DNA of 60,114 nucleotides from Bacteroidota bacterium (GCA_039024375.1 JBCCQK010000001.1:1-60114); one strand, 5' to 3'; numbered from the stretch's first letter, positions 9,393-58,706 are shown. Numbers and translations: made by a program. The notes: generated from the letters alone by a model not told the origin.

Positions 9393-9436
9393 GTTCTCGG
9401 TGAATGCTCGTCTGGAGATGAGTAGATAGCGATTTC

Positions 9437-12201: not shown

Positions 12202-12590
12202 TTAATTCAAGTTGCGGACTAAGTTTCTTGAATCTTAAGCAGGTGATACTTTGCCAGTCTATTGACACCCCACATCCTTTTAGAGATGAAAAGGTGCAGC
12301 GCACCGATAACATTTGTATCAAAAGTTGGTCAAAACGCTCCAAAGGTGCAGCGCACCGTCCACATTAAACCTTATTTTTAACAAATGTGGACGGTGCACT
12401 GCACCTTTGAGACCTACTTTCAGCAGCAGGTGATACAAATATTATCGGTACTCCGTACCTTATTTACCCTAAAGTAACCTTGTGGGGTGTCGTTAGACTT
12501 TGCCAGTATCTCCTGCTTTTTGGGAAGATATAAGAAAGAGATGCTGGCAAAGCATCGCTTTCTACTTCTTCTACGCAACTCGAATTAATT
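12200..12590. repeat. Nested-palindrome element, copy 2, with an extra outer inverted repeat (AATTAATTCAAGTTGCG / CGCAACTCGAATTAATT)
   Basis: The core 12236-12564 matches 4018-4345. The outer arms begin inside the stop codon of paralog 3. Confidence 0.85.
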
Positions 12591-12636
12591 ACTGAGAATT
12601 AGGCTTGTATGGAGTTTTTTCAAAAAAGACTAAATT

Positions 12637-12755
12637 AGGACTGATTCAATACAGATTGGGCAAGATTTAACTGATTTTTACAGATTTCAAACTCAAATGG
12701 CTGAAAAAATCAGCGAAAATCTGTCGAATCCGTTCAATCAGTGTTGAATAAAGTC
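12637..12755. repeat. Intergenic repeat family D (GATTCAATACAGATT / AAAATCTGT / CAATCAGTGTT word repeats, palindromic)
   Basis: The outer arms GGACTGATTCAA / TTGAATAAAGTCC are imperfect. Shares ATCAGTGTT and overall organisation with 45476-45545. Confidence 0.5.
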
Positions 12756-13034
12756 CCAATTTGTAAACGGTAGGTCGCTCCTTCTGAGCTAGCGTTCTCT
12801 CTCCATTCTTTTCACAGGGCTTTCACCTTGAGTTAACATATAGCACACCTTTGATGCGCATGCGTAACATTGGTAATAAGGTTGACCAAATCCGAACACT
12901 AGCTGTCCGATTGTGGACAAGAATTTAGGATTAGGAGGGTTTGTTATTTTCGCAGAATGTTGATTTATAATGGGTTATGATTTTGGTACAGACATTGGTT
13001 TCTATCAGGTAAGCCGTGAAAAATACAAAATGCC

Positions 13035-15413: not shown

Positions 15414-15434
15414 TTACAAGTTGTTCAGCACTCA

Positions 15435-15499
15435 TTTTTTACCACACAGAAATAGAGCTCACAAAGCGCATGGAGTTCTTTTTCGAGCGTAGTTTTGAC
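15435..15499 (+). repeat. Intergenic repeat family C, copy 2
   Basis: TTTTTTACCACACAGAAATAGAGCTCACAAAGCGCATGGAGTTCTTTTTCGAGCGTAGTTTTGAC. Confidence 0.6.
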
Positions 15500-15601
15500 T
15501 ACCGAGGAGTTCGATGTATCAAGGCTTCAGACCTGCTCGCAAGCATTCAAGCGGGCTTGATACGCATATTTGCAGGTCTCCTGACCTGCATGGAGTTGCC
15601 A

Positions 15602-15637
15602 CACTAGTCACTAGTCAACCAATCACTAATCACTAAC
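15602..15637 (+). repeat. Heptamer-periodic leader tract (CACTAGT CACTAGT CAACCAA TCACTAA TCACTAA) ending 4 nt before the start codon
   Basis: A near-identical tract in the same gene-relative orientation lies at 57407-57443, upstream of the NRPS-PKS start codon. Confidence 0.7.
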
Positions 15638-15640
15638 AAA

Positions 15641-18037: not shown

Positions 18038-18240
18038 TGCTGGATGCTGGTTTCTGGATGCTAGATACTAGTTTCTGGTTCCTAGACACTCGTAACTATG
18101 GTGCTGACACGATGACAAACATAAAATGAACCACTAGATTTCTATTGGTGTGCAGTCTCTAATGGGATTAAGTTTATCTAAGTCAGTACGGTCTGCACTA
18201 GTATCCAGAATCCAGTATCTAGAAACTAGCATCCAGCATC
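18035..18240. repeat. Palindromic intergenic element whose arms are 7-nt periodic (GATGCTG GATGCTG GTTTCTG GATGCTA GATACTA GTTTCTG ...)
   Basis: The left arm starts in the TGA stop of paralog 5. The right arm ...CCAGTATCTAGAAACTAGCATCCAGCATC ends 14 nt before the start of paralog 6. Confidence 0.7.
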
Positions 18241-18254
18241 AAAAACAAAAAATC

Positions 18255-45400: not shown

Positions 45401-45411
45401 GTGCAGTTCAT
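39478..45411 (-). CDS. Giant T9SS-secreted multidomain protein: PQQ-type sugar dehydrogenase-like beta-propeller, PKD-like domains, PA14-like domain, six Ig-like repeats, two GEVED-motif domains, T9SS C-terminal sorting domain
   Basis: Signal peptide. HESHGAGQILFGTDGTLMVTVGDG (SGDH-like). PLTVQFDAS (PKD). GFICPPQTGLYTFWIASN (PA14-like, ~42901-42960). Six ~77-aa repeats with TTDGPF...SSGLPV...GPA...TLTGE.GTV..RA.Q.GN. GEVEDY at ~40840 and ~40080. C-terminal LFPNP...GLYYVVIEVEGK. Confidence 0.85.
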   Translation of the reverse strand: MNCTFFGFEKKCPPLLWLLALLCVSFSSICAQPNGFTDELVVDGWNQAVGVTFDENGRMYVWEKGGKVWTVSKGIKSTEPLIDISEEVGNWRDFGLVGFALDPNFLNNGHLYLWYVVDRHHLLNFGTNNYRSDVSSEKEATIARLTRYTANSSDNFTSIDYGSRKILIGESKSTGPPILHESHGAGQILFGTDGTLMVTVGDGASYASPADEGSHPSTYFQQALADGIITPEQNIGAYRCQSLNNLSGKILRIDPETGDGLPSNPYYDSANPRAPQSRTWSIGIRNPYRMAIKPESGSHHAPDGRPGTFIFGDVGWSTWEDLNVVDAPGQNFGWPIYEGISQKAGYENPLYDVGRAEHTPPKIDWRHGTNQARAFINGKMSVIGDGAVQGRPFQGNSSTAGVWYTGKDFPEPYRNTYFHADYSAGWIRNFGFDEQNNPTFVKDFKLDAGAVVCMNVSPAENGIFYVRYPNQIRKITYTGNQNKPPVAIINADQTYGTSPLTVQFDASQSFDSEYSSLKFEWDFGDNATSTDINPKVIFEAPSNAPATYPVTLKVTDAQGGQTEQTIPISLNNTPPVILSTSIDNQNWFSAAAGTTLNLSATVRDMEHPNSLRYEWQTSLFHEGHEHAEPIDSRPNTTTSLSPVECDGSTYWFRITLKVTDPEGLFTVYEKDIYPDCGGLAQTIECAPIPDQPITTGEVVLNATATSGLPVNMYLLEGPAIIFGNKIVSTGFPGRVKIRATQGGNSTYRPATPIERSFNFVLPSTANCATDGKISRDIWTDGQQSLTDNGPVQTKPNETSTLDRFEASPLTTSENTQRIRGFICPPQTGLYTFWIASNEPSQLWLSTNGQTKNKRQIALVKQSTRANQWNKYASQQSDPILLVAGTNYYIEGLANGGGHFSVGWKLPDKSLDRPISGQHLSTWKSKEPQAITFFGIPDKMTTDAPFTVNASASSGLPVDLAVIAGPATISGTTITLTGEAGTVILRATQLGDERFEAANSVERRFEVTPPPRLPKVILNSPANGSSYTQNRLDVRYTLSGDLDFYEANHLLLTLDNQAPIDIHTLNGVYTLKNLSEGTHTLKLQLANSNHQPFNHASATKEVQFTIVPTEKEQQIDFPKLLDKLTTDGPFAIAATATSGLPVQFLLESGPAVLNGNVITLIGQPGTVAVRAIQTGNEEYQPAKDVVRSFDVQSPTIEQQSQSITFPAIPNKKTTDGPFAITASASSGLPVTFAIRTGPATVDGNVITLTGESGTVKVRASQAGNAQFKRAISYDRSFTVESVVPATQQLINFPSLANKLTTDGPFAIAATATSGLPVEFSILSGPATISNNIISLTGESGEVIVRASQRGNSQYLPAPFVDRPFTVSEPITTPPAVEEVNEVSSDYCTTESLFPWQEWIGRVNFGQLDHTSSKAVYTINDYTNLEYAKNERYLLQVIPNFSWTQWDEHISVWIDFNQNGRFEETESVLRAVSLSGVPPTASDGVSATILIPNTAKIGTTRMRVAMQRMEFSTPCEVVNQGEVEDYLISIVDSNSEVSVVEKQAQSINFPAIANQLTTTQTVLLAATATSNLPVSYQILSGPAEVNGNTLKLSGTEGTVVVSAQQAGNAQFLPAQSINRAFKVSSPIEQEETPDDVPATIENYCDAKGQSPWQEWIGRVQFHTLDHISSKEGYGDFTNKETTVERGQTYQLSVSPAFSWTQWDEHINVWIDFNQNGVFEVETELVLSGVSKAQTPNTNPQSVTEQITIPANAGIGTTRMRVAMRQTNAPETCGTFEFGEVEDYTIRIVSSSSSTDKQSLVFSAFLDPKQQVDLQWIASSNQSVLDYEVERSTDNIHFETLQNISLVPEALTATFYRSSDSSPLSGVTYYRVKQRHEDASFVYSNTVVVERAFAENEFYLFPNPVRRQLRLYVKPFLEKSAVITIYNSFGKRIHSQQTPYIETAFMNIDMQQTQNGLYYVVIEVEGKRAISRKFVVNRNY

Positions 45412-45813: not shown

Positions 45814-48800
45814 TTAAGTTTTAAATTTTAGATTTCTTTGATACTTTTCCTCCAATAACGCTTGGAGAATTTTAGCGAATTGCTCGCCATTGGGGGGATT
45901 GAATAGACTCAGGTGGTCTCCGGGGACATCCAAAGTATGGATTTTTCCTCGAATGTAAGGTTTCCATCCTAAAAATTGGTGGTCTTCGATAAAAAATCGT
46001 TGTTCTTCGGCTCGAAATAGGTGTAAATCACCTTCGTAGGGGGTAATGGTATAGTTTTTCCAGGCCTCAAAATTACTCTGATTGACAATCGATTCTAATT
46101 GCGTGTCTTGCTGCGTTTGGGTGTCTTTACCTTCCTTGAAAACTCGATATTTCCAGTTGTTTAACTTTCTTATATAGACATATTTTCGGTAACTGAAATT
46201 CTCTACGGGATTGGTTACCAAGTCTTTCAAGTTCCAAGCGACTTTCTTACCAATCGTACTCACTTTTTCTGAAAAAGAATGCTCGAAATTGGTTAATTCG
46301 GGTTTAATCACCGTATCAAATACGCTTAACAGTAACACTTCCTTGTTCGCTGCTTGCAATTGCTTGGCCATTTCAAAAGCAATTAATCCGCCAAAAGAAT
46401 AGCCCGCCAAAGCGTACGGTTGGTTGGGGTGCACTTGTTGAATCGCTTCAATATAATGACTCGCCATATCTTCAATTCTATCTAGCGGCTGTCCTTCCCC
46501 GTTCAGTCCTTTAGCTTGCAGGGCATAAATGGGCTGGTCGTCGTCCATATTAGCTGCTAAAGTTTGGAACATAAGCACGTGCAATCCGCCACCGTGAATC
46601 AAATAAAGCGGTGGTTTGCTACCCGTTGTTCTGATGGGTACTAGCGACCCTTCAAAGGTACGCTCCGCTTTTTTATCCAATAAATAACCTAATTGATTGA
46701 TGGTAGAATGTTGTAACAAAGCGGCCAATGGCACTCGCCTGCCCAATTTCTTTTCAATGCTGGCCATCATGCTAACGGCAATCAAAGAATGACCACCTAG
46801 TTCAAAAAAATCATCGTGGATGCTTATCGAATCTAAGTTCAGTAGGTCTTGCCAAATAGCCGCAAGCATTTTTTCGGTAGGCGACGTAGCGGCGCAGAAT
46901 ATCTTTTTCTTGGCAACGTTGGACCACTCTGGCACGGGTAATTTTTTCCTATCCACCTTCTGGGAAACCGTCATCGGAAAAGCATCCATCAAAACGAAAG
47001 CGGCTGGAATCATGTAGTCAGGTAATTGACCCTTTAAAAATTCTTTCAGTCCTTCAATGGAAAAAGTAGCTTGGTTGCGGACGATTAAATAGGCGGCTAA
47101 TCGTTTATCGTTCGGTTGGTCTTCTCGAACCATCACCCGATTTTCTTGCACTTCGCCGTATTGTCCAATGGCCGTTTCAATATCTCCCAATTCAATGCGA
47201 TACCCCCGAATTTTTACTTGCTTATCCCCTCGATTCAAATACTCGATATCTCCATTCGGCAAGTAGCGGCCACGGTCGCCCGTTCGATAAAGCGTTTGGT
47301 AATGTTTTTCGTCGGAAAAAGGATTAGGGACAAAAGTCTTATTCGTTAGTTCGGGAAGTTGATGATAACCATTCGGCGCTACGCCAACGCCCGCAATGTA
47401 AATTTCTCCACCTACGCCAATAGGCACGGGCTGCTGGGTTTGGTCCAAAATGTAAATTTTTACATTATTGATGGGACGCCCGACGGGCAAGTAGCCGAAA
47501 TTGTCTTCGGAAAACAAATGAGGTTGAATTTGCTTAGTTGTTGACCAAATAGTTGTTTCGGTGGGGCCGTAAATATTCCAAACTTCTTTAGTATTCGCCA
47601 ACAGTTGCTGTGCCAATTCTTTGGACAAACCTTCGCCCCCCGATAGCGCTCGCAACTGCGGACTATTGGTCCACCCCGCTAGAAGTAGCATCTGCCAAGT
47701 TGAAGGCGTGGCTTGCATTAGTGTAGGCTTCGTTTTTTCAATTAACTCCTTTAATAAGAAACCATCTTTTACGGCTTCTTTGTCAGCAATGATGACCGTT
47801 CCACCCACGAAAAGTGGCATAAAAAAGTCCTGTACCGATGGGTCAAAGGCAATCGAAGCAACGGCCAAAATTTTATCTTTTTCGTCAATTTTATATTTAT
47901 CAATAATCGCTGAATGGTGGTCAACTACCGCATAGTGCGGAATAGCGATTCCCTTAGGTTTTCCCGTTGAACCTGAAGTGTAAATAATATAGGCTGTGTC
48001 CGTCACCCGAGGCGTCGAACCATTTTGAATCAACGGTTGGAACGTATTTTCTAAACTATTTTCGTAAAAAAGAACCGTACCATCGAAGACAGGAATCTGG
48101 TTTTTCAACGGCTCGTGACTTATTAAAAAATCGGCTTTTACATCTTCTAAAATAGTAGCCAATCGTTCGGTCGGATTGATAGGGTCTAATGGAATATAGA
48201 TAGCGCCTAATTTCAAAACGGCTAGTAAACTTATCAACATTTCGGAAGAGCGCTCTAAATAAACCCCAACCTTTTTTCCTCTTTTAACTCTTTTTTGCTG
48301 AAAATAGCCCGCAAGAATAGTCGCCCGCTGATTTAATTCTTGATAAGTAACTAGCTCATTATTAAAGGTTAAGGCTGTTGCATTAGGAAATTGCTGCGCT
48401 TTTTGTTCAAAAAGTGTATGAATACAAACCGTTGGAAAGTTATCCACATTTGTGTCGTTCCAAGATGTTAATAACTTTTCTCGTTCCGATTCGGGTAGCA
48501 ATGGAAGTTGGGCAATAGGCTGATTGGGTTGCTCCAAAATGCCCTTTATCAAAGTGTCAAATTCCAGTAATCGACGTTGAATCGTTGACGTATCAAAAAG
48601 GTCGGTATTATAAATCCATTCGAAGGTAATGCCCGAAGCGTTCGTTTTTAAATTGATAAAAATATCGAAGGTCTCGTAATTGCGGGGAACGGCGCGAGTG
48701 GAAACTTTTAAGTCCCCAAAATTTAGTTGACTAAAATCGCTATCCAAGTTGAAAAGTACCGAAATAATGGGTTGCCGACTGGTGTCTCTAGGTAATTTTA

Positions 48801-51800
48801 ATTCCTTGACCAATGCGCCCAAGGTATAATTTTGGTGGTCAAAGGCATCCAGCATTTTAGTCCGTACTTTTTTCAGATGCGCTAGAAAAGTATCGGTAGC
48901 GTCAACGGTCATTTTCAGCGGAAGCAAACTAACGCTATGTCCCACCAAACCTTGATTACCCGCAATGGCTTGACCCGCCGCTACGACGCCTAAAGTGAAC
49001 GTTTCCTGTTGGGAAAGCCGATGAATGAACGTTTGAAAAGCGGCGAACATAAAATTGTAAAAAGTGGCGCCTTGTTTAGCCGCTAGTTGTTTAATATTTG
49101 TTTGCACATCGGCAGAAAAATGAATTTTTTCCATCGCCGAAGCATACGTCTTCACGGGCGGACGTAGGCGGTCCGTCGGAAAAGCTAAAACGGGAATATC
49201 GTCGGCAAATTCTTTTTTCCAATAATTAACCGACTGTCGATAGGCCTCCGATTCTTTCGCTTTTGCGACTTCTAAAGCGTACCTACTTAGTTGCTTGGGT
49301 GCGGTCAACGGTTGATGCTTTTTACCAACTAATTTAGCGTAAAGCGTTCCCAAATCCGTGCTTAAGATTCCCAACGACCAACCGTCGGCGATGATGTGAT
49401 GCACCGTAATGATGACTAAATGAACGTCGTCGGCCAAACGAATGATTTGAAAACGAGACAGCGGGCCTTGGAATAAATCCATTGGGGTTTCGGCCTCCTG
49501 TTGGTGAATATCGGATAGGGTTAGGGACTTTTCTCCATTGGCCAAATCAATAAAAGGAATCGACATTTCAAAGTTGAGGGCAATGATTTGGGTTTTCCCA
49601 TCTTCACTAAAAGTCGTGCGCAATGCTTCGTGTCGGTCAACTAGCTGCTGAATGGCGGTGCGCATTTTTTCGAGGTCCAAATTTCCCTCCAACCGGATTT
49701 CAGTCGCCAAATTATACGCCGAAGCCGCTTCGGAGTTGAACTGGTGTCCAATCCAAATTTCCTCCTGCCCGTCCGTCAACGGAACAATTTTAGGTTGGGT
49801 TGGGTCAACGGCTAAACCCATCAATTCGGGGTCAATAATTTCGTTTAAATCTTCGCCGTGCCATTCCATGAAGAATTGTCGGTCAAACATCTCGGCAATC
49901 GCCGTTTGGTAAATTTGATAGACTTTATCTAAATCTGCGTCGGAATGTTCGGTCGATAAAAATCCCGCTCTTTCGGTCATATACACGCCGTGGTGACGCA
50001 TGACGTGAAAGAATATTTTGGACAACGGGTAATCGTCGATGACTTTCACCGCTAAGATGGAAGAAGCCGATTTTATGGCTAGAGGTGCTTTCGTTGCTCG
50101 GAAAAGTTGGGCCAACCGTTTGGCGAAAGCCTTGGTTCTACGGTTTAAGTTGAATTGCAGTTGTGGCCCATTTGCTTTTAACTGTTCTAAAACTGCCTTG
50201 GCTGCCGCTAAACTCACGGGATGTTTAACGTACGTCCCACCAAAAAAAGTAACCATCGCTTCGGGGAACGAATCGTCACCGAATTGCCACTGACCGCCAT
50301 CGAAGGCATCCAAATATTTAGCCTTCCCCGCCAACATCGCAATGGGTAAGCCGCCACCCGCAATTTTCCCGTAAGCGCATAAATCCGCCTCGACGCCGTA
50401 CCAGCCCTGTGCGCCCGTTTGGGTCGCCCGAAATCCCGTTACACATTCGTCATAAACCAGCGCAATATCTTTTTGAGTAGCAATACTTCTCAATTGTTCC
50501 AATACTACTTTTCGCTGTAAGTGCGGTGTTTGGGTGTGAAAAGGTTCAACAATAATCGCCGCCAAATCATCGGCATTATCTTCGATAACGTCCATCAGAT
50601 TTGGGTCATCATAGTAGAGTACTAATACATTTGAAACCGCCGATTCTGGAATGCCCGGCGCAATCGTCATAGACTTCGTTCGTCCTTTCAATTGAACACC
50701 CCTTACTAGCATTTCGTCAGCGATACCGTGGTAGTCTCCTTCAAAAACGGCTACTTTTTCTCGACCCGAAACGGTTCGGGTGGCTCTAATGGCGGCGGAG
50801 ATGGCTTCCGAACCCGTATTGACCAAGGTCGCCCGTTCCATGCCCGTCACTTCACAGAGTAACTCAGCCACTTCCTTGGCCAACGGTGGTAAAACGGCTA
50901 ATTCCGTTCCTTTTTGCATTTGTTCAATGACCGCCGTTTGCACAAAATCGGGCGTGTGACCGAAGAGACCAATACCAAAACTCATTAGAAAATCGATGTA
51001 TTCGTTTCCGTCCACGTCCCACATTTTAGAGCCTTTGGAACGAGTCATGGCGATTTGGTAAACGGCGTCTTTCCACAGTTTATTGAAGGCTTGAATGGAG
51101 CGTGGGTCGGATAAATATTGCCGTTGCACTTGACTCAATCGTTTCGACCCTTGGGTTTTCTGATTGTATTTTTTTATAAAATCCGCTAGTTGCCTTTGTT
51201 GAAAATCCGTTAGTTCCGAGACACCTTTCGGAATAGGTTTCCAAGGACCGAAGCCTTTTGACTTATCTGCATCGCTTACTTTTGGAGGTAGGGAAGTTAA
51301 TTTTTGGGGCGTGGGAGACGGTATTTTTCGGGGTGAATTTTGAGCGGTACTTATTTGGGTTGGCACCGGCACATTAGTGGTCGTTCCACTTCCTTTCAGC
51401 AGGTCTAATTGCTGCTGCATGATTTGCAACTGTTGGTTGATGACCGTTTGTAAGGTGCTATTATTAGTCGTCGAGGTGGTTGGTGACACAATTGTTGTGG
51501 GGGTAACCGTATTTTGAACGATTACTGGTGGCAGAAATAAGTCTTTGGCTAGAGTTTCATCCACGTACTCAGCTAATCGCTCAATGGTGGAAGCGTCTTC
51601 AAAAAGTTTCCGAAAGGTAATGGCTAGCTGAAATTTCCGATTAAACTTCGTGACCGCTTGGGTCAAAAATAAGGAGTCAAAGCCAAGTTCTAAAAAGGTG
51701 GCTTCGTTGTCCATCTCTTCGGCTTCCAAGCCACTCAGTTCGAATAAAATTTCTTTGATGAGGTCAATCAGATGGTCTTTTCTAGTCATCGTCTGGGGTT

Positions 51801-54800
51801 TTATAGGAATTGTCGAAGTAATAGGTTGAACAGTAAAATGGAGGGGCTGTTCCACTGGCGTAACTCCAGAGGTTGGAATTGTCTGTTTGGTCAAGGCGGG
51901 CGCTATCCAATGTCTTTTTCGTTCGAAAGGGTAAGTAGGTAAAGGGACTTTGGCGGGGGAAAATGGTTCGTAATATTTATTCCAATCAATAGCTACGCCG
52001 TTACACCACAATTTTCCTAGCGTTTTTTGCAAAAAAGCCACATCATCAATCGTTTCCTTAGGGTGTCGAACCGACGAATAAATGGATTGCGTTTTATCTT
52101 TTTTAGGATGCTGCCGAGCAAAAGTAGCCAATGTTTGACCGGGGCCAACTTCTAGTAAAAGGCCATTTTTTTCTTTTAAAATAGTGGCCAAACCATCCGA
52201 AAAACGCACCGTTTGTCGAAGGTGGCGTACCCAATAATCGGGCGTTACCATTTCTTCGGGAAGCGCCCAATTTCCATTGACGTTGGAAATGACTGGAATG
52301 ATTGGTGGATGAAAACTAATGCCTTTTAGAAAGGCGCTAAATTCGGGAATGATGGGTTCAATTTGTGCCGAATGAGCGGCCACATCAATGTGTATTTTGC
52401 TCGCTTCTATCCCCCGTTGGGTTAGCTTTTGGTGTAAATGATTTATCGCTTCGACGGTTCCCGAAACTACACAATTATTGGGTTTATTGATGACCGAGAT
52501 GCTTGTTTTATCGGACAAATAGGGCGATAGTTCCTTTTCCGAGAGGGAAACGCTTAACATACTCCCCGCTGCCGATAAACCTTCAAAAAGCTGTCCCCGC
52601 TTGACGACTATCCGCAAACCGTCTTCCCAAGAAAATACACCCGCCAAGCAAGCAGCGGTGTATTCGCCCATGCTGTGGCCAATCATTTGGTCGGGTTCGA
52701 TTCCCCAATTTTGCCAGAGTTTAGCTAAAGCGTACTCGACAGTAAAAAGCGTGGCTAAGGCGTTGGTCGGTCGCTGAATGGCCGATTTATGTTCGTTGGT
52801 CGCTGATATGGTTTCGGTAAAAAGCAATGGTGCAATATCCAGTTCCCATTCCTTTTTTAGAAAATCTGCACAGCTATCCACCTGCTCTCGAAAGGTTGGA
52901 AAAGCGATATAAAGTCCCTTTGCCATTCCCACGTACTGCGCTCCACCACCGGGGAAAAGGAAGGTGATTTTGGAGGCAGTATTACCACTTTTTAACTGAT
53001 TTTTAAAAGTAGCAGTAGGTTTATCAGAATTATTTGATGAGTAAATATTGCTCAATCGATAGTTGAAAGCGGCTCGCCCCGTAGCTAACGTATAAGCAAC
53101 ATCTACAAGACGAATGTCTGGTTTTCTTTCTAGAAAAGCGGTCAATTGTGCCTGCTGCTCGTTCAAAGATGATTCACTTTTTGCGGAAAGCAATAATAAA
53201 TTAAAATTAGGAGTAGGAATCGTTTTGGTGTTTTCTTTAACTGCTGGTGCTTCTTCTAAAATTAAGTGCGCATTGGTACCACCTAAACCGAAAGAACTAA
53301 CCCCCACTCGTCGAATCCGTTCACCTTTTTCCCAACGTTGCAATCGGTCGTTGACGTAGAAAGGAGAATTGGCAAAATCTATTTGTGGATTGGGTTTTTC
53401 AAAGTTCAATGATGGTGGCAGCAACTCATATTTCAAGGACAAAGCCGTTTTAATAATCCCCACTAAACAAGACCCAGCATCAAGGTGACCAATGGCCGTT
53501 TTGACGGAACCAATGGCACAGTATTGTTTTTTATCCGTATGCTTTCGAAAGGCTTTGGTGAGTCCCGCCACTTCAATTGGGTCACCTAAAATAGTTCCCG
53601 TCCCGTGCGCTTCCACGTAGTCGATAGCGTCCGCCGATAGATTAGCTTTGGCCAAAGCGGTCGTAATCGCATCCGATTGTCCTTTGATACTTGGTGCTGT
53701 AAACCCTATTTTTTCATTACCATCATTATTGATGGCCGTTCCTTTAATAACTGCCCAAACATGGTCTCTATCTTCAAGTGCACGGTCTAGCTTTTTTAAA
53801 ACAATACTTACCATTCCGTTTCCTCGTACCATTCCCTTTGCTTCGGCATCAAAAGCTCGGAGATAGCCGTCGGGAGACAAGGGTCCACCTTCCACATAAT
53901 CGTAACCTGCTTGCAAATCGGGCTGAATTCGGCCACCACTCACGAGTACCATATCCGAATCGCCGTTCAAGATACTTTGGCAAGCGAGATGAACGGCCGT
54001 CCCCGAAGTAGAGCAAGCGGTTTGCACATTTACGGCGGGCCCCTTCAAGTTCAATTGATAGGCTACTCGGCTGATGGCAAAGGTTTTTTCACTGCCTAGC
54101 GTGTCTTGATATTCCCCTGCCGTTGCTAATAAATCGGGATGGGTTGCAATATTACCGGAAAAGTAAGAGTTGCGGGCAACGCCTCCGAATATGCCGATTT
54201 TACCTTTGTATTCGTAAGGATTACAGCCCGCACTTTCCAAAGCTGCGTAAGCTACCTCTAATAAAACTCGGTGCTGCGGGTCCATCATCGCTGCCTCTTT
54301 GGGATAATAGCCAAAAAAAGCCGCATCGAAACACGCCAAATCGTCGAGCGATAAAGTTCTGGCGACTCGGTTGGTCCGTTTTAGGAGTTCTTCGCCTTGT
54401 CCTAATGCTTCCAAATCGGCGGCCGTTACGGCTCGACTTACATCTTTTCCGTTGACCAAATTCAACCAGAATTCGTGTAGCGAATTGGCGCCCGGTAAAC
54501 GGCAAGCCATGCCAATAATGGCGATGTCGGACGAGGAGAAACTACTCTTAATTGGTTGTTTTTTAGGTAAGTTTTCTTGTGTATCAAGTGGCATTTCGTA
54601 CCCTAAGTCCTTCGCTAAAGTAAGCGTTTCGATATTTAATTGCTGTATATTTTTAGGTGAAGGAGTAGCGGCTTTTTGGGCGTTTATTTTTGTAAATTTC
54701 AAAAGGTTGCTATCGCTCATTGAGCGGGATTCGGCGTGAATCCCATTGATGTTTTTTGTTTCAATGTTTTGGTAAGGAGTCAGTAAATCGGGGTGAAAAG

Positions 54801-57390
54801 GCAGGTCAATTTGCTGACAAAGCGCCTTCATCATTTCCTCGGGCCGTTGCACCAACGCTTCGTACTGCAATCGAAATTGCTGATTCTGCGGAATTTTCTG
54901 TAAAAACTGTTGAATATTTCGATGGCTTTCCAACCAAACCAACTCTCCTAGTTCTTTCGAATTATACCGATGATTTTTTAGATACAGCACTTGTTCCATG
55001 TGGTACTTTTCGAAAGAATGAACCATGGATTGTGGATGGCGTACTAAATGAATAAAAATGGGATTATCAAAGTTTTGGTGGATATTTTCTAGTGTTGCTG
55101 CGTCCAAAGCGTAGGCGGGCGTTTTGTCCACAATGATTTTGGGAGCCGCCCACGTTTGCAATTGTTGGTAAAAATCTAAAGTAGTAGCGCCGTCCATTTC
55201 CCATTGTCGAATGGTTGCTTTCGCTTCGTCCACGCTGCAATTTTTCAGTTGCATCACCGCCCGAACGGCGCCTTCTTGCCAAAGCTCGAATTTGCCAACG
55301 TAGGCTTGATTGCGCTCCGCCAAAGTCGAGAATCCCAATAATTTTAGTTCGTTGAAAGCAACTAAATCGGGATGACCCGCCAGCATTAAACTCAATAGAC
55401 TAGTCCCCGAACGGGGCGGCGCTAGTATAAAAATAGCCGATGGGTTTTTTATAGCGATTGGTGTCGGCGCAGTAGAAGTGGGAAGGTATTTTTTGAAATC
55501 GGCAATTTGTACCGCAGTTAACCTACTTTCTTCTTCCTTAGCGCTAGCTACACTTTTCTTCGTTTGAATAGCTAATTCTTTCGCGTAGTCTTTAGTTAAA
55601 AATTGAGCATACTCGGCAATCGTTGGATGGTTAAAAATCGTTGTGACAAAAATGGACGTATTCAGTTTTTTTTGCCATTGTCCGATAAATTGAGCCGCTT
55701 GAATTGAAGTACCACCTAGTTCAAAAAACTTATCGTGGCGGCCAATGCCGTCTATTTGTAAAATGGATTCCCAAGATTTTGCTAGTTTCTTTTCCAAATC
55801 ACCTTTTAGAGTAGTATAAGCTTGTGCCAATTTGGGACGACTGCTCGGTGGTAATGGCAACGCCTTTCGGTCGAATTTTCCATTTGGAGTTAGAGGCATT
55901 TTGGCTAAAGTCACAAAACGAGTAGGTAGCATATAGGGCGGTAACTGCTGCGCCAAAAAATCCCGTAGTTCGCTGATGGTTACCGCATTTTCACTGTTCT
56001 CGGTCAAATAGGCTACTAACATTTTTTGACGATTATTGTCGTCTGTTCGAAGCACGACCACCGTTTCTTTAACACTCGGATGCTGCCCAATTGCCGTTTC
56101 TATTTCTCCCAATTCTATTCGATAGCCGTTGAACTTTACTTGAAAGTCGGCTCTGCCCAAAAATTCGACGCTATCGTCGGGTGACCACTTGGCCAAATCG
56201 CCCGTTTTGTACAGCGTTTTTCCCCCACGAATTGCTTGAAAAGGGTTGTTAATAAATCGTTCGGCAGTCAGTTCAGACCGATTCCAGTATCCTTTTCCAA
56301 CTACGTCTTTTGCGCCGCCAATGTAAATTTCGCCCACCTCCTCCTTACCAACTTCTTGTAGCTGTTCATTCAAGATGAAAATTTCGTAGTTAGCAATTGG
56401 AAAACCAATGGGTACTTTAGCTGCTGCGAACCCTTTCGGTATTTTAAAAAAAGTACAGTTGACGGTCGCTTCCGTTGGGCCGTATAAATTGTACAATTGA
56501 CAGTTAGTTAGTAACTGTTCGTGTCGTTGGGCTAAAGAAGTTGGGCAAACTTCTCCCGATACGTTGATGAGTTCGAGAGATTGTAATTTTTGGGGATTGG
56601 CTTGTTCTAGAATTAACGTATGCAAGGAAGGCAGCGTGAGTAGGTGGGAAATCTGCTGCCGCTCAATCGTATTGGCTAACTGCTGGATATCCTTTTCTTC
56701 GTCCTGTCGAGGAATTACTAAGGTTGCCCCTTGATAGAAGGTCCAAAAAATGGTCAACACCGATACGTCAAAAGAAATGGAACAAGTCAGCAACATTTTA
56801 TGGATAGGATTGGGCGCAATTTGCTGTTGCCCTTCTAATTGATTCATTACGTTTTGGTGGCTAATCATCACCCCTTTAGGACGCCCCGTTGACCCCGACG
56901 TGTAAATCATATACGCCAAGTCGGTAGATTGATTGACTTTTTGGTAAGGTTTCGAGAAGTCTGGTTCTAATATCTGTTGAATCTTCTCTATAAAAACCAA
57001 TTCAGTAGGCAGTCCTAAAAGATTACTTTTAAAAGCACTTTGTGTAATAACTATTTTAGCTTGGGCATCTTCCACCATAAATCGAACCCTCTCCTTCGGG
57101 TAAGCCACATCAATTGGTACGTAGGCCGCTCCTGCCTTTTGAATCCCAATAATTGTTACCAATAATTCTAAAGAGCGTTCCAAATGAAAGGCCACAAAAT
57201 CGCCTCTTTGAACGCCTTTTGCTTGTAGATAGCTAGCCAATTGGGTTGATTGTTGGTCTAGGGCAGCGTAAGTCAGCACTTGATTTTCGAAAATCAACGC
57301 TGCTTGATTAGGCGTTACAGCCGCATAGTGCTCGACCAATTCGGGTAGGAGGGTATTCTTTCCAAAAAATGTTACGTTTTTTGAGGACAT
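45814..57390 (-). CDS. Hybrid NRPS-PKS megasynthase, 3,858 aa: A-PCP-ST-KS-AT-ACP-AMT-C-A-PCP-TE
   Basis: Approximate nucleotide spans from hand translation follow. A1 55860-57390 (LAYMIYTSGSTGRPKG, NLYGPTE, YKTGDL, NGKFDRKALP). PCP1 55600-55830 (FFELGGTS). Sulfotransferase-like 54700-55450 (FILAPPRSGTSLL, LVRHPQSMVHS). KS 53245-54525 (TACSTS, EAHGTGT, KTAIGH). AT 52020-52975 (GHSMGEY). ACP 51540-51790 (LGFDSL). PLP aminotransferase 49880-51230 (AYGKIAGGGLP). C 48480-49790 (HHIIADGWS). A2 46950-48450 (AYIIYTSGSTGKPKG). PCP2 46690-46900 (FFELGGHS). TE 45850-46640 (GYSFGG, PGDH). Confidence 0.9.
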   Translation of the reverse strand: MSSKNVTFFGKNTLLPELVEHYAAVTPNQAALIFENQVLTYAALDQQSTQLASYLQAKGVQRGDFVAFHLERSLELLVTIIGIQKAGAAYVPIDVAYPKERVRFMVEDAQAKIVITQSAFKSNLLGLPTELVFIEKIQQILEPDFSKPYQKVNQSTDLAYMIYTSGSTGRPKGVMISHQNVMNQLEGQQQIAPNPIHKMLLTCSISFDVSVLTIFWTFYQGATLVIPRQDEEKDIQQLANTIERQQISHLLTLPSLHTLILEQANPQKLQSLELINVSGEVCPTSLAQRHEQLLTNCQLYNLYGPTEATVNCTFFKIPKGFAAAKVPIGFPIANYEIFILNEQLQEVGKEEVGEIYIGGAKDVVGKGYWNRSELTAERFINNPFQAIRGGKTLYKTGDLAKWSPDDSVEFLGRADFQVKFNGYRIELGEIETAIGQHPSVKETVVVLRTDDNNRQKMLVAYLTENSENAVTISELRDFLAQQLPPYMLPTRFVTLAKMPLTPNGKFDRKALPLPPSSRPKLAQAYTTLKGDLEKKLAKSWESILQIDGIGRHDKFFELGGTSIQAAQFIGQWQKKLNTSIFVTTIFNHPTIAEYAQFLTKDYAKELAIQTKKSVASAKEEESRLTAVQIADFKKYLPTSTAPTPIAIKNPSAIFILAPPRSGTSLLSLMLAGHPDLVAFNELKLLGFSTLAERNQAYVGKFELWQEGAVRAVMQLKNCSVDEAKATIRQWEMDGATTLDFYQQLQTWAAPKIIVDKTPAYALDAATLENIHQNFDNPIFIHLVRHPQSMVHSFEKYHMEQVLYLKNHRYNSKELGELVWLESHRNIQQFLQKIPQNQQFRLQYEALVQRPEEMMKALCQQIDLPFHPDLLTPYQNIETKNINGIHAESRSMSDSNLLKFTKINAQKAATPSPKNIQQLNIETLTLAKDLGYEMPLDTQENLPKKQPIKSSFSSSDIAIIGMACRLPGANSLHEFWLNLVNGKDVSRAVTAADLEALGQGEELLKRTNRVARTLSLDDLACFDAAFFGYYPKEAAMMDPQHRVLLEVAYAALESAGCNPYEYKGKIGIFGGVARNSYFSGNIATHPDLLATAGEYQDTLGSEKTFAISRVAYQLNLKGPAVNVQTACSTSGTAVHLACQSILNGDSDMVLVSGGRIQPDLQAGYDYVEGGPLSPDGYLRAFDAEAKGMVRGNGMVSIVLKKLDRALEDRDHVWAVIKGTAINNDGNEKIGFTAPSIKGQSDAITTALAKANLSADAIDYVEAHGTGTILGDPIEVAGLTKAFRKHTDKKQYCAIGSVKTAIGHLDAGSCLVGIIKTALSLKYELLPPSLNFEKPNPQIDFANSPFYVNDRLQRWEKGERIRRVGVSSFGLGGTNAHLILEEAPAVKENTKTIPTPNFNLLLLSAKSESSLNEQQAQLTAFLERKPDIRLVDVAYTLATGRAAFNYRLSNIYSSNNSDKPTATFKNQLKSGNTASKITFLFPGGGAQYVGMAKGLYIAFPTFREQVDSCADFLKKEWELDIAPLLFTETISATNEHKSAIQRPTNALATLFTVEYALAKLWQNWGIEPDQMIGHSMGEYTAACLAGVFSWEDGLRIVVKRGQLFEGLSAAGSMLSVSLSEKELSPYLSDKTSISVINKPNNCVVSGTVEAINHLHQKLTQRGIEASKIHIDVAAHSAQIEPIIPEFSAFLKGISFHPPIIPVISNVNGNWALPEEMVTPDYWVRHLRQTVRFSDGLATILKEKNGLLLEVGPGQTLATFARQHPKKDKTQSIYSSVRHPKETIDDVAFLQKTLGKLWCNGVAIDWNKYYEPFSPAKVPLPTYPFERKRHWIAPALTKQTIPTSGVTPVEQPLHFTVQPITSTIPIKPQTMTRKDHLIDLIKEILFELSGLEAEEMDNEATFLELGFDSLFLTQAVTKFNRKFQLAITFRKLFEDASTIERLAEYVDETLAKDLFLPPVIVQNTVTPTTIVSPTTSTTNNSTLQTVINQQLQIMQQQLDLLKGSGTTTNVPVPTQISTAQNSPRKIPSPTPQKLTSLPPKVSDADKSKGFGPWKPIPKGVSELTDFQQRQLADFIKKYNQKTQGSKRLSQVQRQYLSDPRSIQAFNKLWKDAVYQIAMTRSKGSKMWDVDGNEYIDFLMSFGIGLFGHTPDFVQTAVIEQMQKGTELAVLPPLAKEVAELLCEVTGMERATLVNTGSEAISAAIRATRTVSGREKVAVFEGDYHGIADEMLVRGVQLKGRTKSMTIAPGIPESAVSNVLVLYYDDPNLMDVIEDNADDLAAIIVEPFHTQTPHLQRKVVLEQLRSIATQKDIALVYDECVTGFRATQTGAQGWYGVEADLCAYGKIAGGGLPIAMLAGKAKYLDAFDGGQWQFGDDSFPEAMVTFFGGTYVKHPVSLAAAKAVLEQLKANGPQLQFNLNRRTKAFAKRLAQLFRATKAPLAIKSASSILAVKVIDDYPLSKIFFHVMRHHGVYMTERAGFLSTEHSDADLDKVYQIYQTAIAEMFDRQFFMEWHGEDLNEIIDPELMGLAVDPTQPKIVPLTDGQEEIWIGHQFNSEAASAYNLATEIRLEGNLDLEKMRTAIQQLVDRHEALRTTFSEDGKTQIIALNFEMSIPFIDLANGEKSLTLSDIHQQEAETPMDLFQGPLSRFQIIRLADDVHLVIITVHHIIADGWSLGILSTDLGTLYAKLVGKKHQPLTAPKQLSRYALEVAKAKESEAYRQSVNYWKKEFADDIPVLAFPTDRLRPPVKTYASAMEKIHFSADVQTNIKQLAAKQGATFYNFMFAAFQTFIHRLSQQETFTLGVVAAGQAIAGNQGLVGHSVSLLPLKMTVDATDTFLAHLKKVRTKMLDAFDHQNYTLGALVKELKLPRDTSRQPIISVLFNLDSDFSQLNFGDLKVSTRAVPRNYETFDIFINLKTNASGITFEWIYNTDLFDTSTIQRRLLEFDTLIKGILEQPNQPIAQLPLLPESEREKLLTSWNDTNVDNFPTVCIHTLFEQKAQQFPNATALTFNNELVTYQELNQRATILAGYFQQKRVKRGKKVGVYLERSSEMLISLLAVLKLGAIYIPLDPINPTERLATILEDVKADFLISHEPLKNQIPVFDGTVLFYENSLENTFQPLIQNGSTPRVTDTAYIIYTSGSTGKPKGIAIPHYAVVDHHSAIIDKYKIDEKDKILAVASIAFDPSVQDFFMPLFVGGTVIIADKEAVKDGFLLKELIEKTKPTLMQATPSTWQMLLLAGWTNSPQLRALSGGEGLSKELAQQLLANTKEVWNIYGPTETTIWSTTKQIQPHLFSEDNFGYLPVGRPINNVKIYILDQTQQPVPIGVGGEIYIAGVGVAPNGYHQLPELTNKTFVPNPFSDEKHYQTLYRTGDRGRYLPNGDIEYLNRGDKQVKIRGYRIELGDIETAIGQYGEVQENRVMVREDQPNDKRLAAYLIVRNQATFSIEGLKEFLKGQLPDYMIPAAFVLMDAFPMTVSQKVDRKKLPVPEWSNVAKKKIFCAATSPTEKMLAAIWQDLLNLDSISIHDDFFELGGHSLIAVSMMASIEKKLGRRVPLAALLQHSTINQLGYLLDKKAERTFEGSLVPIRTTGSKPPLYLIHGGGLHVLMFQTLAANMDDDQPIYALQAKGLNGEGQPLDRIEDMASHYIEAIQQVHPNQPYALAGYSFGGLIAFEMAKQLQAANKEVLLLSVFDTVIKPELTNFEHSFSEKVSTIGKKVAWNLKDLVTNPVENFSYRKYVYIRKLNNWKYRVFKEGKDTQTQQDTQLESIVNQSNFEAWKNYTITPYEGDLHLFRAEEQRFFIEDHQFLGWKPYIRGKIHTLDVPGDHLSLFNPPNGEQFAKILQALLEEKYQRNLKFKT

Positions 57391-57897: not shown

Positions 57898-57952
57898 TGG
57901 CTATATTGTTGTATGGTTATATTGTTTGGCAGCCATATAGCCATACAACAAT
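57898..57952. repeat. Hairpin built from ATGGYTATATTGTT words
   Basis: TATTGTTGTATGGTTATAT / ATATAGCCATACAACAATA. Related words occur at 9625-9643 and 9696-9721. Confidence 0.6.
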
Positions 57953-58023
57953 ACAATTACACAATTAGTAGCTTTTTTGATGCTTATTAAAATGATTTGT
58001 AGCTGCTTAGCGCATTTTTCACC

Positions 58024-58184: not shown

Positions 58185-58706
58185 TTACCTCAATTTTTGT
58201 AAGGCCTTTAATATCTTTTTACCTCTCGATTGAAAAGCTGCCGTTCCGTAGGGTAAGTGTTCCTCAATAACTAAGCGTAGTTCCTCTGATAAATCGGGTT
58301 CTTTTTTGCAAATATTATACAAGACGGTCATGGAGAAAGCACGAACGGCCACCGCTTCTTTGGGGTCTAACAAATAGCCAAAACAACAATCGGCAGCAAT
58401 GCCCATCAAATCTTCGGGCAATTCCACATCCTGCAGAACACGAACTGTATTTCGCTTGACGGCAACGTGTAAGTTTTTATTTTGAAGATTATGCACTAGT
58501 TTTTCTAGGTGCTTATTGAGTAGAAAAGGATATTTCTCTACACAATGCATCATTATCCACGCCGCCCGTTGCGTTACCCGATGTTCATTGCCGTAAAAAT
58601 GGGTCATCAATTCATCAAATCGGGACTGGTCTGCGTCGATATAATCTCTCACAAGAATGGCTTGTGCCTTAGAATGTTCTTTTAGTATGGCGGCTTTTAG
58701 GTCCAT
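58185..58706 (-). CDS. Hypothetical all-helical (HEAT/armadillo-like) protein, possibly DNA alkylation repair-like
   Basis: 173-aa ORF with a helical-repeat character. The family guess is weak. Confidence 0.4.
   Translation of the reverse strand: MDLKAAILKEHSKAQAILVRDYIDADQSRFDELMTHFYGNEHRVTQRAAWIMMHCVEKYPFLLNKHLEKLVHNLQNKNLHVAVKRNTVRVLQDVELPEDLMGIAADCCFGYLLDPKEAVAVRAFSMTVLYNICKKEPDLSEELRLVIEEHLPYGTAAFQSRGKKILKALQKLR

Follow-up and report, generated by a model that had tools for sequence, protein, structure and literature searches.

A Bacteroidota NRPS-PKS-NRPS megasynthase predicted to combine an amino acid starter, a sulfotransferase and a MycA-type aminotransferase

Introduction

The window analysed here, a stretch of DNA of 60,114 nucleotides from a Bacteroidota bacterium, encodes a polyketide synthase module followed by a PLP dependent aminotransferase, and the question it raises is what kind of unit such a module builds. 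An earlier note proposed that the module is non-reducing, extends an alpha-amino acid and delivers a beta,gamma-diamino acyl unit. The host appears to be a Saprospiraceae-like bacterium. A literature search found neither a published description of this domain combination nor a characterised homologue of like architecture.

Domain organization of the megasynthase

The stretch from 49880 to 54525 on the negative strand corresponds to about residues 955-2504 of a megasynthase encoded by a single uninterrupted ORF (Table 1). The ORF, the order of the Pfam domains and the catalytic motifs agree that the KS-AT-ACP-AMT unit is real, and the C-A-PCP-TE domains that the earlier note placed downstream of the AMT follow in that order. 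Pfam matches of the megasynthase domains have E values from 1e-26 to 1e-168, well outside what chance would give, and catalytic motifs located on the protein sequence are intact throughout. As read from the domain order, the unit is the central part of a stand-alone hybrid NRPS-PKS-NRPS.

Table 1. Features of the megasynthase, with positions in the window and residues of the protein.
Feature	Position	Strand	Residues	Evidence and motifs
Whole megasynthase gene, 3858 aa, A-PCP-ST-KS-AT-ACP-AMT-C-A-PCP-TE	45814..57390	-		Single ORF; Pfam; architecture shared with related loci
Loading adenylation domain A1	55876..57333	-	20-505	Pfam AMP-binding and AMP-binding_C; PDB matches; code DVLLNSLVNK
PCP1	55597..55788	-	535-598	Pfam PP-binding, E 3e-13; Ser in GGTS
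CurM/OLS-type sulfotransferase (ST)	54682..55476	-	639-903	Homology to PDB 4gbm and 4gox; Pfam Sulfotransfer_3 (653-866); PAPS loop PRSGTS, Glu682, VDK, RHP
Ketosynthase (KS)	53056..54531	-	954-1445	Pfam ketoacyl-synt (954-1331), Ketoacyl-synt_C, KAsynt_C_assoc (C-terminal extension to 1445); TACSTS, EAHGTGT, IGHLD
Acyltransferase (AT)	52093..52965	-	1476-1766	Pfam Acyl_transf_1; PDB 4qbu; motif comparison; GHSMGEY, Arg1598, VAAHS
ACP	51553..51783	-	1870-1946	Pfam PP-binding; AF2 four-helix bundle; Ser1906 in LGFDSLF
T/P/S/Q-rich disordered ACP-AMT linker with one conserved helix	51208..51552	-	1947-2061	No Pfam match; pLDDT; composition
MycA-type PLP amine transferase (AMT)	49885..51204	-	2063-2502	PDB 6kfm/6kfu; Pfam Aminotran_3 (2112-2472); Lys2342 at 50365-50367
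Condensation domain (C)	48469..49791	-	2534-2974	Pfam Condensation, E 4e-92; HHIIADG
Second adenylation domain A2	46891..48423	-	~2990-3500	Second Pfam AMP-binding stretch; code DPQQLGIIWK
PCP2	46690..46866	-	3509-3567	Pfam PP-binding
Type I thioesterase (TE)	45862..46611	-	3594-3843	Pfam Thioesterase; GYSFGG

Proposed pathway

We consider a pathway of five steps (A1 loading, sulfonation, extension, transamination, and coupling to a Gly-like residue with release) to be the probable route; from the domains we infer its substrates, when sulfation takes place, what becomes of the sulfate and the alpha-amine, and how the product is released. In brief, A1 would adenylate an alpha-amino acid that is small, neutral and polar, and load it onto PCP1, and the ST behind PCP1 would O-sulfonate the tethered residue using PAPS. 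The KS would then join the aminoacyl thioester and a malonyl-type unit, the presumed extender transferred by the cis-AT to the ACP, forming a gamma-amino-beta-ketoacyl-ACP. With no reducing domain in the module, the beta-keto group would be left for the AMT to aminate, giving a vicinal (3,4-) diamino acyl-ACP on which the sulfate ester, or its conversion product, is still present. Finally, the C domain would couple the diamino acyl group to a Gly-like residue on the A2 module, and the TE would release a small dipeptide-like product.

A beta,gamma-diamino (3,4-diamino) acyl intermediate would be the straightforward reading of this domain order, since a non-reducing module and a MycA-type AMT are combined with a starter from an NRPS A domain. 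To this extent the proposal of the earlier note holds; its simple open form is less certain, because O-sulfonation before extension could open the way to elimination or ring closure, and the unit might then not be a plain 3,4-diamino acid. The idea of a protease-inhibitor pharmacophore is unsupported. As counterpoints to the pathway, it should be noted that a free gamma-amine beside a thioester would be prone to lactamise and that elimination would be expected of a sulfate ester located beta to an acidic C-H.

Loading module and sulfotransferase

The best PDB matches of A1 are the NRPS A domains LgrA, TycA and GrsA, and its code, read against the GrsA/1AMU numbering, includes Asp235 and Lys517. 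These features mark A1 as an NRPS A domain and not a fatty-acyl ligase, and support an alpha-amino acid starter, as had been proposed. The code is identical to the Ser code DVWH(F/L/I)SL(V/I)DK at six of ten positions and is non-canonical for Ser or Thr, with Trp239, His278 and Asp331 replaced; the nearest relatives of A1 with canonical codes are Ser-coded. Because the code is non-canonical, the assignment to a hydroxy-amino acid draws on weak similarity and on the association given below. We suggest that A1 selects a small neutral polar, Ser-related alpha-amino acid, most likely one with a side-chain hydroxyl (Ser-, Thr- or homoserine-sized).

The ST is placed directly after PCP1 and before the KS. 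The closest solved structures are the ST of CurM (4gbm, E 1e-51) and that of OLS (4gox, E 2.5e-43), and the PAPS loop PRSG(T/S), the catalytic Glu and the VDK and RHP..S motifs are invariant in 41 ST domains. In 80 metagenomic loci, Ser/Thr codes were found in 41/65 A domains directly upstream of CP-ST and in 3/43 of the other A domains of the same loci (p 2e-9), and the fractions are 19/37 and 3/22 (p 0.005) once the set is dereplicated at 70% identity. From this strong tie between A-CP-ST and Ser/Thr-coded A domains, we take a hydroxy-amino acid to be the probable starter, its O-sulfonation probably taking place on the carrier before chain extension. The earlier note treated sulfation as a decoration; given the type of the ST, its position directly after PCP1 and the tie to Ser/Thr codes, this view is probably incomplete. 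The sulfate could be kept, or it could be used as a leaving group.

The ACP-ST-TE units of CurM and OLS likewise have the ST fused directly behind a carrier protein, and the homologous STs share the PAPS loop, Glu, VDK and RHP. They differ in that their ST acts on a beta-hydroxyl made by a KR and adjoins a specialised decarboxylative-elimination TE, whereas the ST here follows a loading PCP and precedes a KS. With no KR present, the hydroxyl presumably comes from the amino acid side chain; the A1 code itself is only Ser-like. His62 of CurM is Lys in the megasynthase ST and Gln in most relatives.

To our knowledge, the only characterised STs of the CurM/OLS clade, those of the curacin and olefin synthase pathways, install sulfate as a leaving group. 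Sulfate esters of amino alcohols are known to close to aziridines in the chemical Wenker reaction and, by enzymes, in pathways of the azinomycin/ficellomycin type. By the Pfam order, the ST would act before extension, when the amine of the residue is free. It is therefore conceivable, though on balance unlikely, that the amine of the starter or the one installed by the AMT attacks the O-sulfonated amino alcohol, with the sulfate leaving. A Ser/Thr-type starter would then give an aziridine and a homoserine-type starter an azetidine or pyrrolidine, and the product would be an N-heterocyclic, possibly electrophilic, beta-amino-acyl dipeptide and not an open-chain sulfated diamine. Against such a ring closure, no dedicated cyclase is encoded, and removal of the sulfate in CurM needs a specialised TE, whereas that of the megasynthase is distant in the chain and matches generic NRPS/FAS TEs in the PDB, with the CurM TE not among the matches. 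Moreover, a sulfotransferase embedded in an NRPS need not serve a leaving group, as the oci cyanopeptolins retain their sulfate as sulfated glyceric acid. As outlined in its published description, the oci cluster combines an ST domain with a special, glyceric-acid-loading (GA) domain in a peptide pathway (PMC2533009). The likeness lies in the domain content; the starter there is glyceric acid and no PKS or AMT follows.

Beta-elimination could instead take place, either from the O-sulfo-aminoacyl thioester or from the beta-keto intermediate, and give a 2-aminoacrylyl group that tautomerises and hydrolyses to a 2-oxoacyl group. The AMT would then install the sole amine, and the product would be a beta-amino-gamma-oxo acid without a 3,4-diamine. 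The CurM/OLS-type ST with its invariant motifs and the tie of A-CP-ST to Ser/Thr codes fit this reading, and so does the chemistry: a thioester or ketone makes the C-H alpha to it acidic, sulfate leaves readily, and free 2-aminoacrylates hydrolyse spontaneously. We nevertheless regard it as quite improbable. It is a roundabout path to a 2-oxoacyl starter, the sulfated beta-hydroxyacyl-ACP on CurM is stable until the TE acts, and ST-less relatives with Val- or Pro-coded starters retain the downstream domains, suggesting that the amine is tolerated.

Extension module

The catalytic triad of the KS is present (Cys1126/His1262/His1302). Two positions in the earlier note are adjusted: about 51790 marks where the ACP domain begins and not its serine, the codon of which lies at 51673-51675, and about 52020, given as the end of the AT, falls within the post-AT linker, as the Pfam match of the AT ends at residue 1766 (52093).

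The AT motifs, from which the substrate was to be predicted, point in two directions in a comparison with 77 related ATs. GHSMGEY (a GHSxG with a hydrophobic x) and Arg1598 are features of canonical malonyl-CoA ATs. The malonyl signature is absent, with VAAHS in place of HAFH, and NALATLF, in which the Gln of TQPALF is replaced; HAFHS together with TQPA(L/I)F occurs in 34 of the related ATs, including those of most ST-less relatives. As a canonical malonyl AT would have other motifs, the extender, and even its being a C2 unit, is uncertain. Use by the AT of an extender with an alpha substituent, for example hydroxymalonyl-ACP, leading to a 2-hydroxy-3-amino (bestatin/microginin-like) acid with a 4-amine, is very improbable: the best structure match is the hydroxymalonyl-ACP specific AT of ZmaA (4qbu, E 1.6e-69) and VAAH at the YASH position resembles GAAH of ZmaA, unlike HAFH of the ST-less relatives, but the active site is GHSMG as in CoA-using ATs and not GYSFG, the carrier-recognition (RXR) positions are E-A-S and not hydrophobic M-x-M/W, the malonyl-CoA specific FabD of E. 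coli has VPSH and one subgroup of relatives VPAH, and FkbH-type precursor genes are absent from the window and from the conserved flanks of relatives. An AT for ACP-linked extenders in general (ZmaA/methoxymalonyl type, GYSxG) was rejected on the same grounds, as only xAAH and the similarity to 4qbu fit.

No Pfam match to KR, DH, ER or MT was found at E<=0.01 over the whole protein, and the isolated linkers (104 aa between AT and ACP, and a stretch of 181 aa scanned between ACP and AMT) gave no match at E<=10. In an AlphaFold2 model of residues 1780-2540, only three elements are ordered, the four-helix bundle of the ACP, the fold of the AMT and a lone helix between them, the rest having a pLDDT below 50. 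The linkers, of 104 and about 115 aa, are thus predicted to be short and disordered, with no room for reducing domains, in agreement with the proposed non-reducing module without a cryptic KR. A statine-type (gamma-amino-beta-hydroxy) unit was discarded, as it requires a KR and none was found by Pfam or in the model.

The ACP-AMT linker had been described as low-complexity and T/S/Q-rich, which the composition of residues 1941-2062 bears out (T 16%, P 12%, S 9% and Q 9%, against 6.7, 5.2, 5.7 and 6.0% protein-wide). What had been taken for one coiled-coil-like segment has two components. One is the lone helix at residues 1979-1998 (51397-51456), with a motif QQLxxMxQQL that is conserved in the alignment of relatives, and the other is part of the AMT domain, the N-terminal helices of which can be aligned with the crystal construct of the MycA AMT.

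Aminotransferase domain

The class-III PLP aminotransferase is fused between ACP and C, an order that is identical in all related loci. It matches the AMT of MycA in 6kfm with an E value of 9e-106 over query residues 13-452 of 465, and in 6kfu with an E value also of ~1e-105; judged by eye from the alignment, it is ~45% identical to the crystallised domain over the full length, including the N-terminal extension. The Schiff-base lysine, which the earlier note had placed near 50370, is conserved, YGKIAGGG being aligned with YGKIIGGG of MycA, and the PLP-binding Asp lies in the DE of VYDEC, aligned with MDEI. We suggest that the AMT replaces the beta-keto group with a beta-amine.

MycA and ItuA of the iturin family (AL-ACP-KS-ACP-AMT-C-A-PCP) share with the megasynthase a KS, a carrier and a class-III PLP AMT followed by a C domain, without reducing domains. 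Their starter comes from a fatty-acyl ligase, in contrast to the NRPS A domain with Asp235 found here, malonyl is supplied to MycA in trans by FenF and not by an AT in cis, and the ST in the loading module sets the megasynthase apart. Only one further amino acid would be added before the TE, so the product should be dipeptide-sized, compared with the lipoheptapeptide of the iturin family.

Cyanobacterial FAAL-primed AMT modules (microginin, puwainaphycin and nostophycin types) have the same KS-AT-ACP-AMT order with a cis-AT, but extend fatty or aryl acids, whereas here the starter would be an alpha-amino acid and no monooxygenase domain is present. A luciferase-like monooxygenase domain by the AMT is known for the formation of alpha-hydroxy-beta-amino acids. 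Four relatives (L048, L049, L055 and L078) have about 400 residues between AMT and C, which in L048 are taken up by a luciferase-like monooxygenase domain. A chemical analogy exists to BioF/BioA (8-amino-7-oxononanoate to 7,8-diaminononanoate), where class-III transamination of an amino-acid-derived alpha-amino ketone also forms a vicinal diamine; BioF and BioA, however, are separate proteins that take free acids as substrates, with SAM as the amino donor, and not carrier-bound domains. The bioA models match the AMT weakly.

Terminal module and relatives

The nearest relatives of A2 with canonical codes are Gly-coded (DILQLGMIWK), and the canonical Gly code is found at the A2 position in ST-less relatives. 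We infer that A2 selects a Gly-like residue.

The architecture of 11 domains is conserved in about 34 Saprospiraceae/Bacteroidota loci, with 40-84% domain identity. A PPTase gene is the only recurrent neighbour of these loci, and the megasynthase alone should therefore define the product. In ST-less relatives, Val-, Thr- or Pro-coded starters are loaded into a like KS-AT-ACP-AMT unit. Going by these codes, the relatives show that extension and transamination of an amino acid starter by KS-AT-ACP-AMT would be a widespread logic.

Domain organization of the megasynthase

The megasynthase is encoded by one unbroken open reading frame of 3858 codons, located at 45814-57390 on the minus strand of the window. 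Pfam recognizes eleven domains, with E-values between 1e-26 and 1e-168, and the catalytic motifs are all intact. These are the Cys/His/His of the KS, GHSMGEY and Arg1598 of the AT, Ser1906 of the ACP, Lys2342 of the aminotransferase (AMT), HHIIADG of the C domain and GYSFGG of the TE. An earlier note placed a KS-AT-ACP-AMT module at 49880-54525; these positions correspond to residues 956-2504 and agree with Pfam, and the lysine that it pointed out is Lys2342, at 50365-50367.

Domains of the megasynthase (protein residues) and features encoded nearby (window positions)
Feature	Position	Strand	Remark
A	residues 20-505		Pfam
PCP1	between first A and sulfotransferase		Pfam order
Sulfotransferase (ST)	residues 653-866		Pfam
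KS with C-terminal extension	residues 954-1445		Pfam
AT	residues 1476-1766		Pfam
ACP	between AT and aminotransferase		Pfam order
Class-III aminotransferase	residues 2112-2472		Pfam
C	residues 2534-2974		Pfam
Second A	between C and PCP2		Pfam order
PCP2	residues 3509-3567		Pfam
TE	residues 3594-3843		Pfam
Six tandem paralogues, ~790-890 aa each	4261-20714	+	MacB-like periplasmic core and FtsX permease domains
Giant secreted GSDH/PKD/PA14/GEVED protein with T9SS sorting tail	39478-45411	-	Directly downstream of megasynthase
173-aa ORF	58185-58706	-	Upstream; weak HEAT-like (Adaptin_N) match, no NCBIfam match

The module was also said to lack KR, DH and ER domains. This holds for the entire protein, which has no KR, DH, ER or MT match in Pfam at E<=0.01, and the isolated AT-ACP and ACP-AMT linkers gave zero Pfam matches even at E<=10. 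Reducing domains cannot fit here because the linkers are too short: the AT-ACP linker measures 104 aa, and the stretch from the ACP to where the AMT fold begins approximately 115 aa. Three elements are ordered in an AlphaFold2 model of residues 1780-2540, the four-helix bundle of the ACP, a single helix and the AMT fold. The Pfam scan and the model together rule out a cryptic KR or DH within the linkers, and a statine-type unit is excluded since the megasynthase has no KR.

The ACP-AMT linker is enriched in T, S and Q, as the earlier note had it, and also in P. The adjoining segment described there as coiled-coil-like is indeed helical, but it comprises the lone helix together with the N-terminal helices of the AMT, the latter aligning to the MycA AMT crystal construct. 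The lone helix (residues 1979-1998, window 51397-51456, sequence LQTVINQQLQIMQQQLDLLK) is modelled with low confidence. Its motif, QQLxxMxQQLxxL, is kept among relatives, with Q208, L209 and Q215 invariant in their alignment, and the helix might serve in docking or dimerisation.

The amination module

The best matches of the AMT among solved structures are the MycA amine-transferase entries 6kfm/6kfr and 6kfu (E approximately 1e-105), with an alignment spanning residues 13-452 of the 465-residue query. The next matches, at approximately 1e-49, are glutamate-1-semialdehyde aminomutases. The lysine of YGKIAGGG, previously proposed as catalytic, aligns with that of MycA YGKIIGGG, and the PLP-binding strand also aligns at its Asp-Glu. 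NCBIfam searches with the ST, AMT and AT gave nothing above cut-off. By these alignments the AMT is a predicted MycA-type keto-to-amine domain. The unit would work like the beta-amination module of MycA/ItuA and has its sequence-level features, but differs from it in not having a fatty-acyl starter.

Starter selection and second adenylation domain

That the starter is an amino acid is supported by the first adenylation domain, A1, which is closest in structure to the NRPS A domains of LgrA, TycA, McyA and GrsA and not to fatty-acyl ligases. Specificity codes were read by alignment to a GrsA fragment identical to 1AMU residues 181-527, giving DVLLNSLVNK for A1 and DPQQLGIIWK for the second domain, A2. 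Both contain the Asp235 and Lys517 that alpha-amino acids would need; neither string was found in the searchable literature. For A2 the code is a variant form of DILQLGMIWK, the Gly code that relatives without an ST have at this position. The A1 code shares six of ten positions with the Ser code and has no charged pocket residue, and the canonical relatives nearest to A1 in our data set are Ser-coded, at 41% identity, barely above the others. In the Saprospiraceae subgroup to which the loader belongs, the codes (DVLLNSLVNK, DGLLSAQVGK) have moved away from the Ser code; the starter is therefore probably, not certainly, a hydroxy-amino acid.

Relatives and genomic surroundings

We scanned genomes, one for each species, with the ACP-AMT stretch and obtained 588 relatives; domains were mapped in the best 80 of these loci (handles beginning with L denote related loci from the genome and metagenome scans). 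Among these 80, approximately 20 encode the same 11-domain protein in full and approximately 12 more copies end at a contig edge. Nearly all 11-domain copies are from Saprospiraceae or Bacteroidota MAGs, with 40-84% domain identity, and split versions occur in Trueperaceae, Burkholderiales, Gemmatimonadota and Calditrichia. Relatives without an ST are found in Acidobacteriota, Verrucomicrobiota and others; here a stand-alone A-PCP (Val, Thr or Pro codes) or an N-acylating C-A-PCP feeds KS-AT-ACP-AMT-C-A(Gly). Because relatives with and without an ST are widespread, feeding of the KS-AT-ACP-AMT amination module with amino acids is predicted to be common in nature, though it is undescribed in the literature that we searched.

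Several loci depart from this layout. L012 and L018 have an extra C-A-PCP module (A code DPQVITFIYK) and are tripeptide-length versions, and in L069 the ACP before the AMT is doubled (tandem ACPs, ORF residues 1923-2122). The Chthoniobacterales locus L048 encodes a luciferase-like monooxygenase between AMT and C (12233-13420, E 2e-52); approximately 400 extra residues are found there also in the Chthoniobacterales loci L049, L055 and L078.

An Sfp-type PPTase, found in 16 loci, is the only neighbour conserved across the ST-type loci, and the megasynthase is thus essentially a one-gene pathway as far as gene content can predict. Members of the subgroup with A2 code DMPQIGGIYK (L010, L011, L012, L015, L018, L026-L029) have in common an upstream block with a gene for an outer-membrane efflux protein (OEP) and genes that look MBOAT-like and SGNH-like by sequence only. 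This block is absent from the window.

The neighbours in the window, which encode the T9SS-secreted GSDH/PKD/GEVED protein, RlmN, SmpB, an M42 peptidase and the six MacB/FtsX permease paralogues, indicate a Bacteroidota chromosome. Beside the megasynthase we recognized no tailoring, PAPS-supply, MbtH or PPTase gene, and no PPTase or MbtH-like gene is located anywhere in the window. GSDH-type proteins adjoin the synthetase also in L002, L004, L012, L018, L021 and L023, representing three subgroups; if these genomes encode many such proteins, as they do, the adjacency may be coincidental. No Rfam family was found in the window. A hairpin at 57901-57956, in the 800-bp stretch upstream of the megasynthase, has weak miRNA-family matches only and may terminate the 173-aa ORF that lies before the megasynthase gene. 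Beyond its weak HEAT-like match that ORF has no family assignment, and the idea of a resistance gene thus finds no support.

Acyltransferase and extender unit

The textbook malonyl signature (TQPALF ... GHS[LVI]GE ... HAFHS) is present in 34 of 78 aligned ATs, including most of the relatives without an ST and the Burkholderiales locus L034. In the window, and in almost every other ST-bearing relative, the corresponding stretches are instead of the NALATLF type and VAAHS or VPAHS. This shift, at 52369-52383 and 52660-52680 in the window, tracks the ST-bearing Saprospiraceae-type enzymes (L001-L032 and L044).

An extender with an alpha-substituent may be used, and the best structure match of the AT is the hydroxymalonyl-ACP specific AT of ZmaA (4qbu, E 1.6e-69), followed by those of SpnD and CurL. 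ATs that use ACP-bound units are hydrophobic at the carrier-recognition positions and those using CoA are basic (PMC4207774). By the same criteria the window AT, with E-A-S, has neither set; its GHSxG retains the His, in contrast to GYSFG in ZmaA, and its VAAH is intermediate between GAAH of ZmaA and VPSH of E. coli FabD (PMC4207774). FkbH-type genes were found neither in the window nor as conserved neighbours of relatives. Malonyl-CoA would be the default extender of the megasynthase.

The sulfotransferase and the A-CP-ST unit

The closest structures to the ST are the CurM ST (4gbm, E 1e-51) and the olefin synthase (OLS) ST (4gox, E 2.5e-43), and protein-tyrosine sulfotransferases rank far lower. 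All 41 aligned ST domains, CurM and OLS included, share the PAPS loop, the catalytic Glu, VDK and RHP..S without variation. The CurM ST acts on a beta-hydroxyacyl group, which it sulfonates on the carrier just before it, and the carrier directly before the megasynthase ST is PCP1. The enzyme is homologous to those of CurM and OLS but lacks a KR-derived substrate and a partner TE: comparison with known structures identified the TE as generic and rejected a CurM-like off-loading TE.

We scanned metagenome contigs with the ST alignment, mapped the domains and read the adjacent A codes. A-CP-ST occurs in four contexts. Two are loaders: one, fused or split, precedes KS-AT-CP-AMT-C, and the other precedes KS-AT-CP-C-A or KS-AT-CP-TE. 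The unit is also found internally, in C-A-CP-ST-C-A-CP, and terminally, in C-A-CP-ST-TE. A canonical Ser/Thr code is found in 41 of 65 A domains directly before CP-ST versus 3 of 43 non-ST A domains in the same loci (Fisher p 2e-9). The internal units, 15 in number, all have Ser/Thr codes. When the A domains are dereplicated at 70% identity, 19/37 and 3/22 remain (p 0.005). In the genome scan, the complete ST-bearing loader A domains outside Saprospiraceae (L030, L034, L044) are Ser- or Thr-coded, leaving out L035, whose loader ends at a contig edge. The C-terminal ends of L048 and L049 are A-PCP-ST or A-PCP-ST-ST, with Ser-like A codes. The most economical reading of these codes is that the STs would place sulfate on the beta-hydroxyl of Ser/Thr-type residues bound to the carrier.

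CurM-type STs are internal, as C-A(Ser/Thr)-CP-ST-C, in L105, L109, L121, L124, L125, L128, L130, L133, L140, L143, L147, L149, L150, L157 and L160. They are terminal, as C-A(Thr)-CP-ST-TE, in L135, L137, L141, L142, L148, L151-L155 and L159, an order that mirrors ACP-ST-TE of CurM. The TE of L151 was rejected as a CurM-like off-loader; it matches generic NRPS TEs and not the CurM TE. No function of these internal or terminal pure-NRPS units was described in the literature searched.

Proposed biosynthesis

We suggest that a small hydroxy-amino acid would be loaded onto PCP1 and O-sulfonated by the ST. Condensation with a malonyl-type unit by the KS would then yield a gamma-amino-beta-ketoacyl-ACP, which the AMT would convert to a beta,gamma-diamino acyl-ACP. 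The C domain would join this unit to a Gly-like residue, and the TE would free the product. This open-chain, collinear scheme is the most likely reading, and we hold it with moderate confidence; for the vicinal diamine itself the chances are roughly even.

The sulfate may meet one of several fates. It may be kept in the product, as in cyanopeptolins of the oci type, which keep a sulfated glyceric acid. An NRPS-embedded ST domain is reported for the cyanopeptolin oci cluster (PMC2533009). The sulfate may instead leave by elimination, in which case a starter with a free amine would turn into a 2-oxoacyl unit and lose its alpha-amine. It may also be displaced by a neighbouring amine, forming an aziridine or a larger ring. 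A broader proposal, which we put forward tentatively and consider less likely than not, is that A-CP-ST is a general NRPS device that O-sulfonates carrier-bound Ser/Thr-type residues for side-chain activation, the sulfate here being displaced or eliminated in concert with the amine installed by the AMT. If true, one gene would give not a simple sulfated diamine but a nitrogen-rich warhead that is strained or unsaturated, for example an aziridinyl beta-amino acid.

Novelty and implications

The domain types of the megasynthase are all known, and their combination is absent from the searchable literature. Searches on domain combinations, vicinal diamines with AMT, NRPS with ST domains, and ST, dehydroamino-acid and enamide chemistry did not find this architecture described. 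ST-linked Ser/Thr modules and amino-acid-primed AMT modules are described in no retrievable paper, and sulfation is absent from a 2023 review of dehydroamino-acid biosynthesis. With amino acids fed into it, a MycA-type keto-to-amine module would offer assembly lines a way to vicinal (beta,gamma) diamino acids. Guadinomine is made by an aminomalonyl-extender route; both this and BioA chemistry differ from the amino-acid-fed MycA-type route. A second aspect absent from that literature is the fusion of a CurM-type ST to an NRPS loading carrier. Metagenomes commonly contain A-CP-ST units, in starting, internal and terminal positions, and these are tied to Ser/Thr modules, which points to an unstudied route by which hydroxy-amino acids would be modified or activated while on NRPS carriers.

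To our knowledge, Saprospiraceae have almost no characterised natural products. The megasynthase gene is intact and self-contained (with a PPTase in relatives) and is kept across the family. It does not represent a new enzyme class. It is a conserved and intact system of one gene, and the assembly-line chemistry shown by its product would probably be new.
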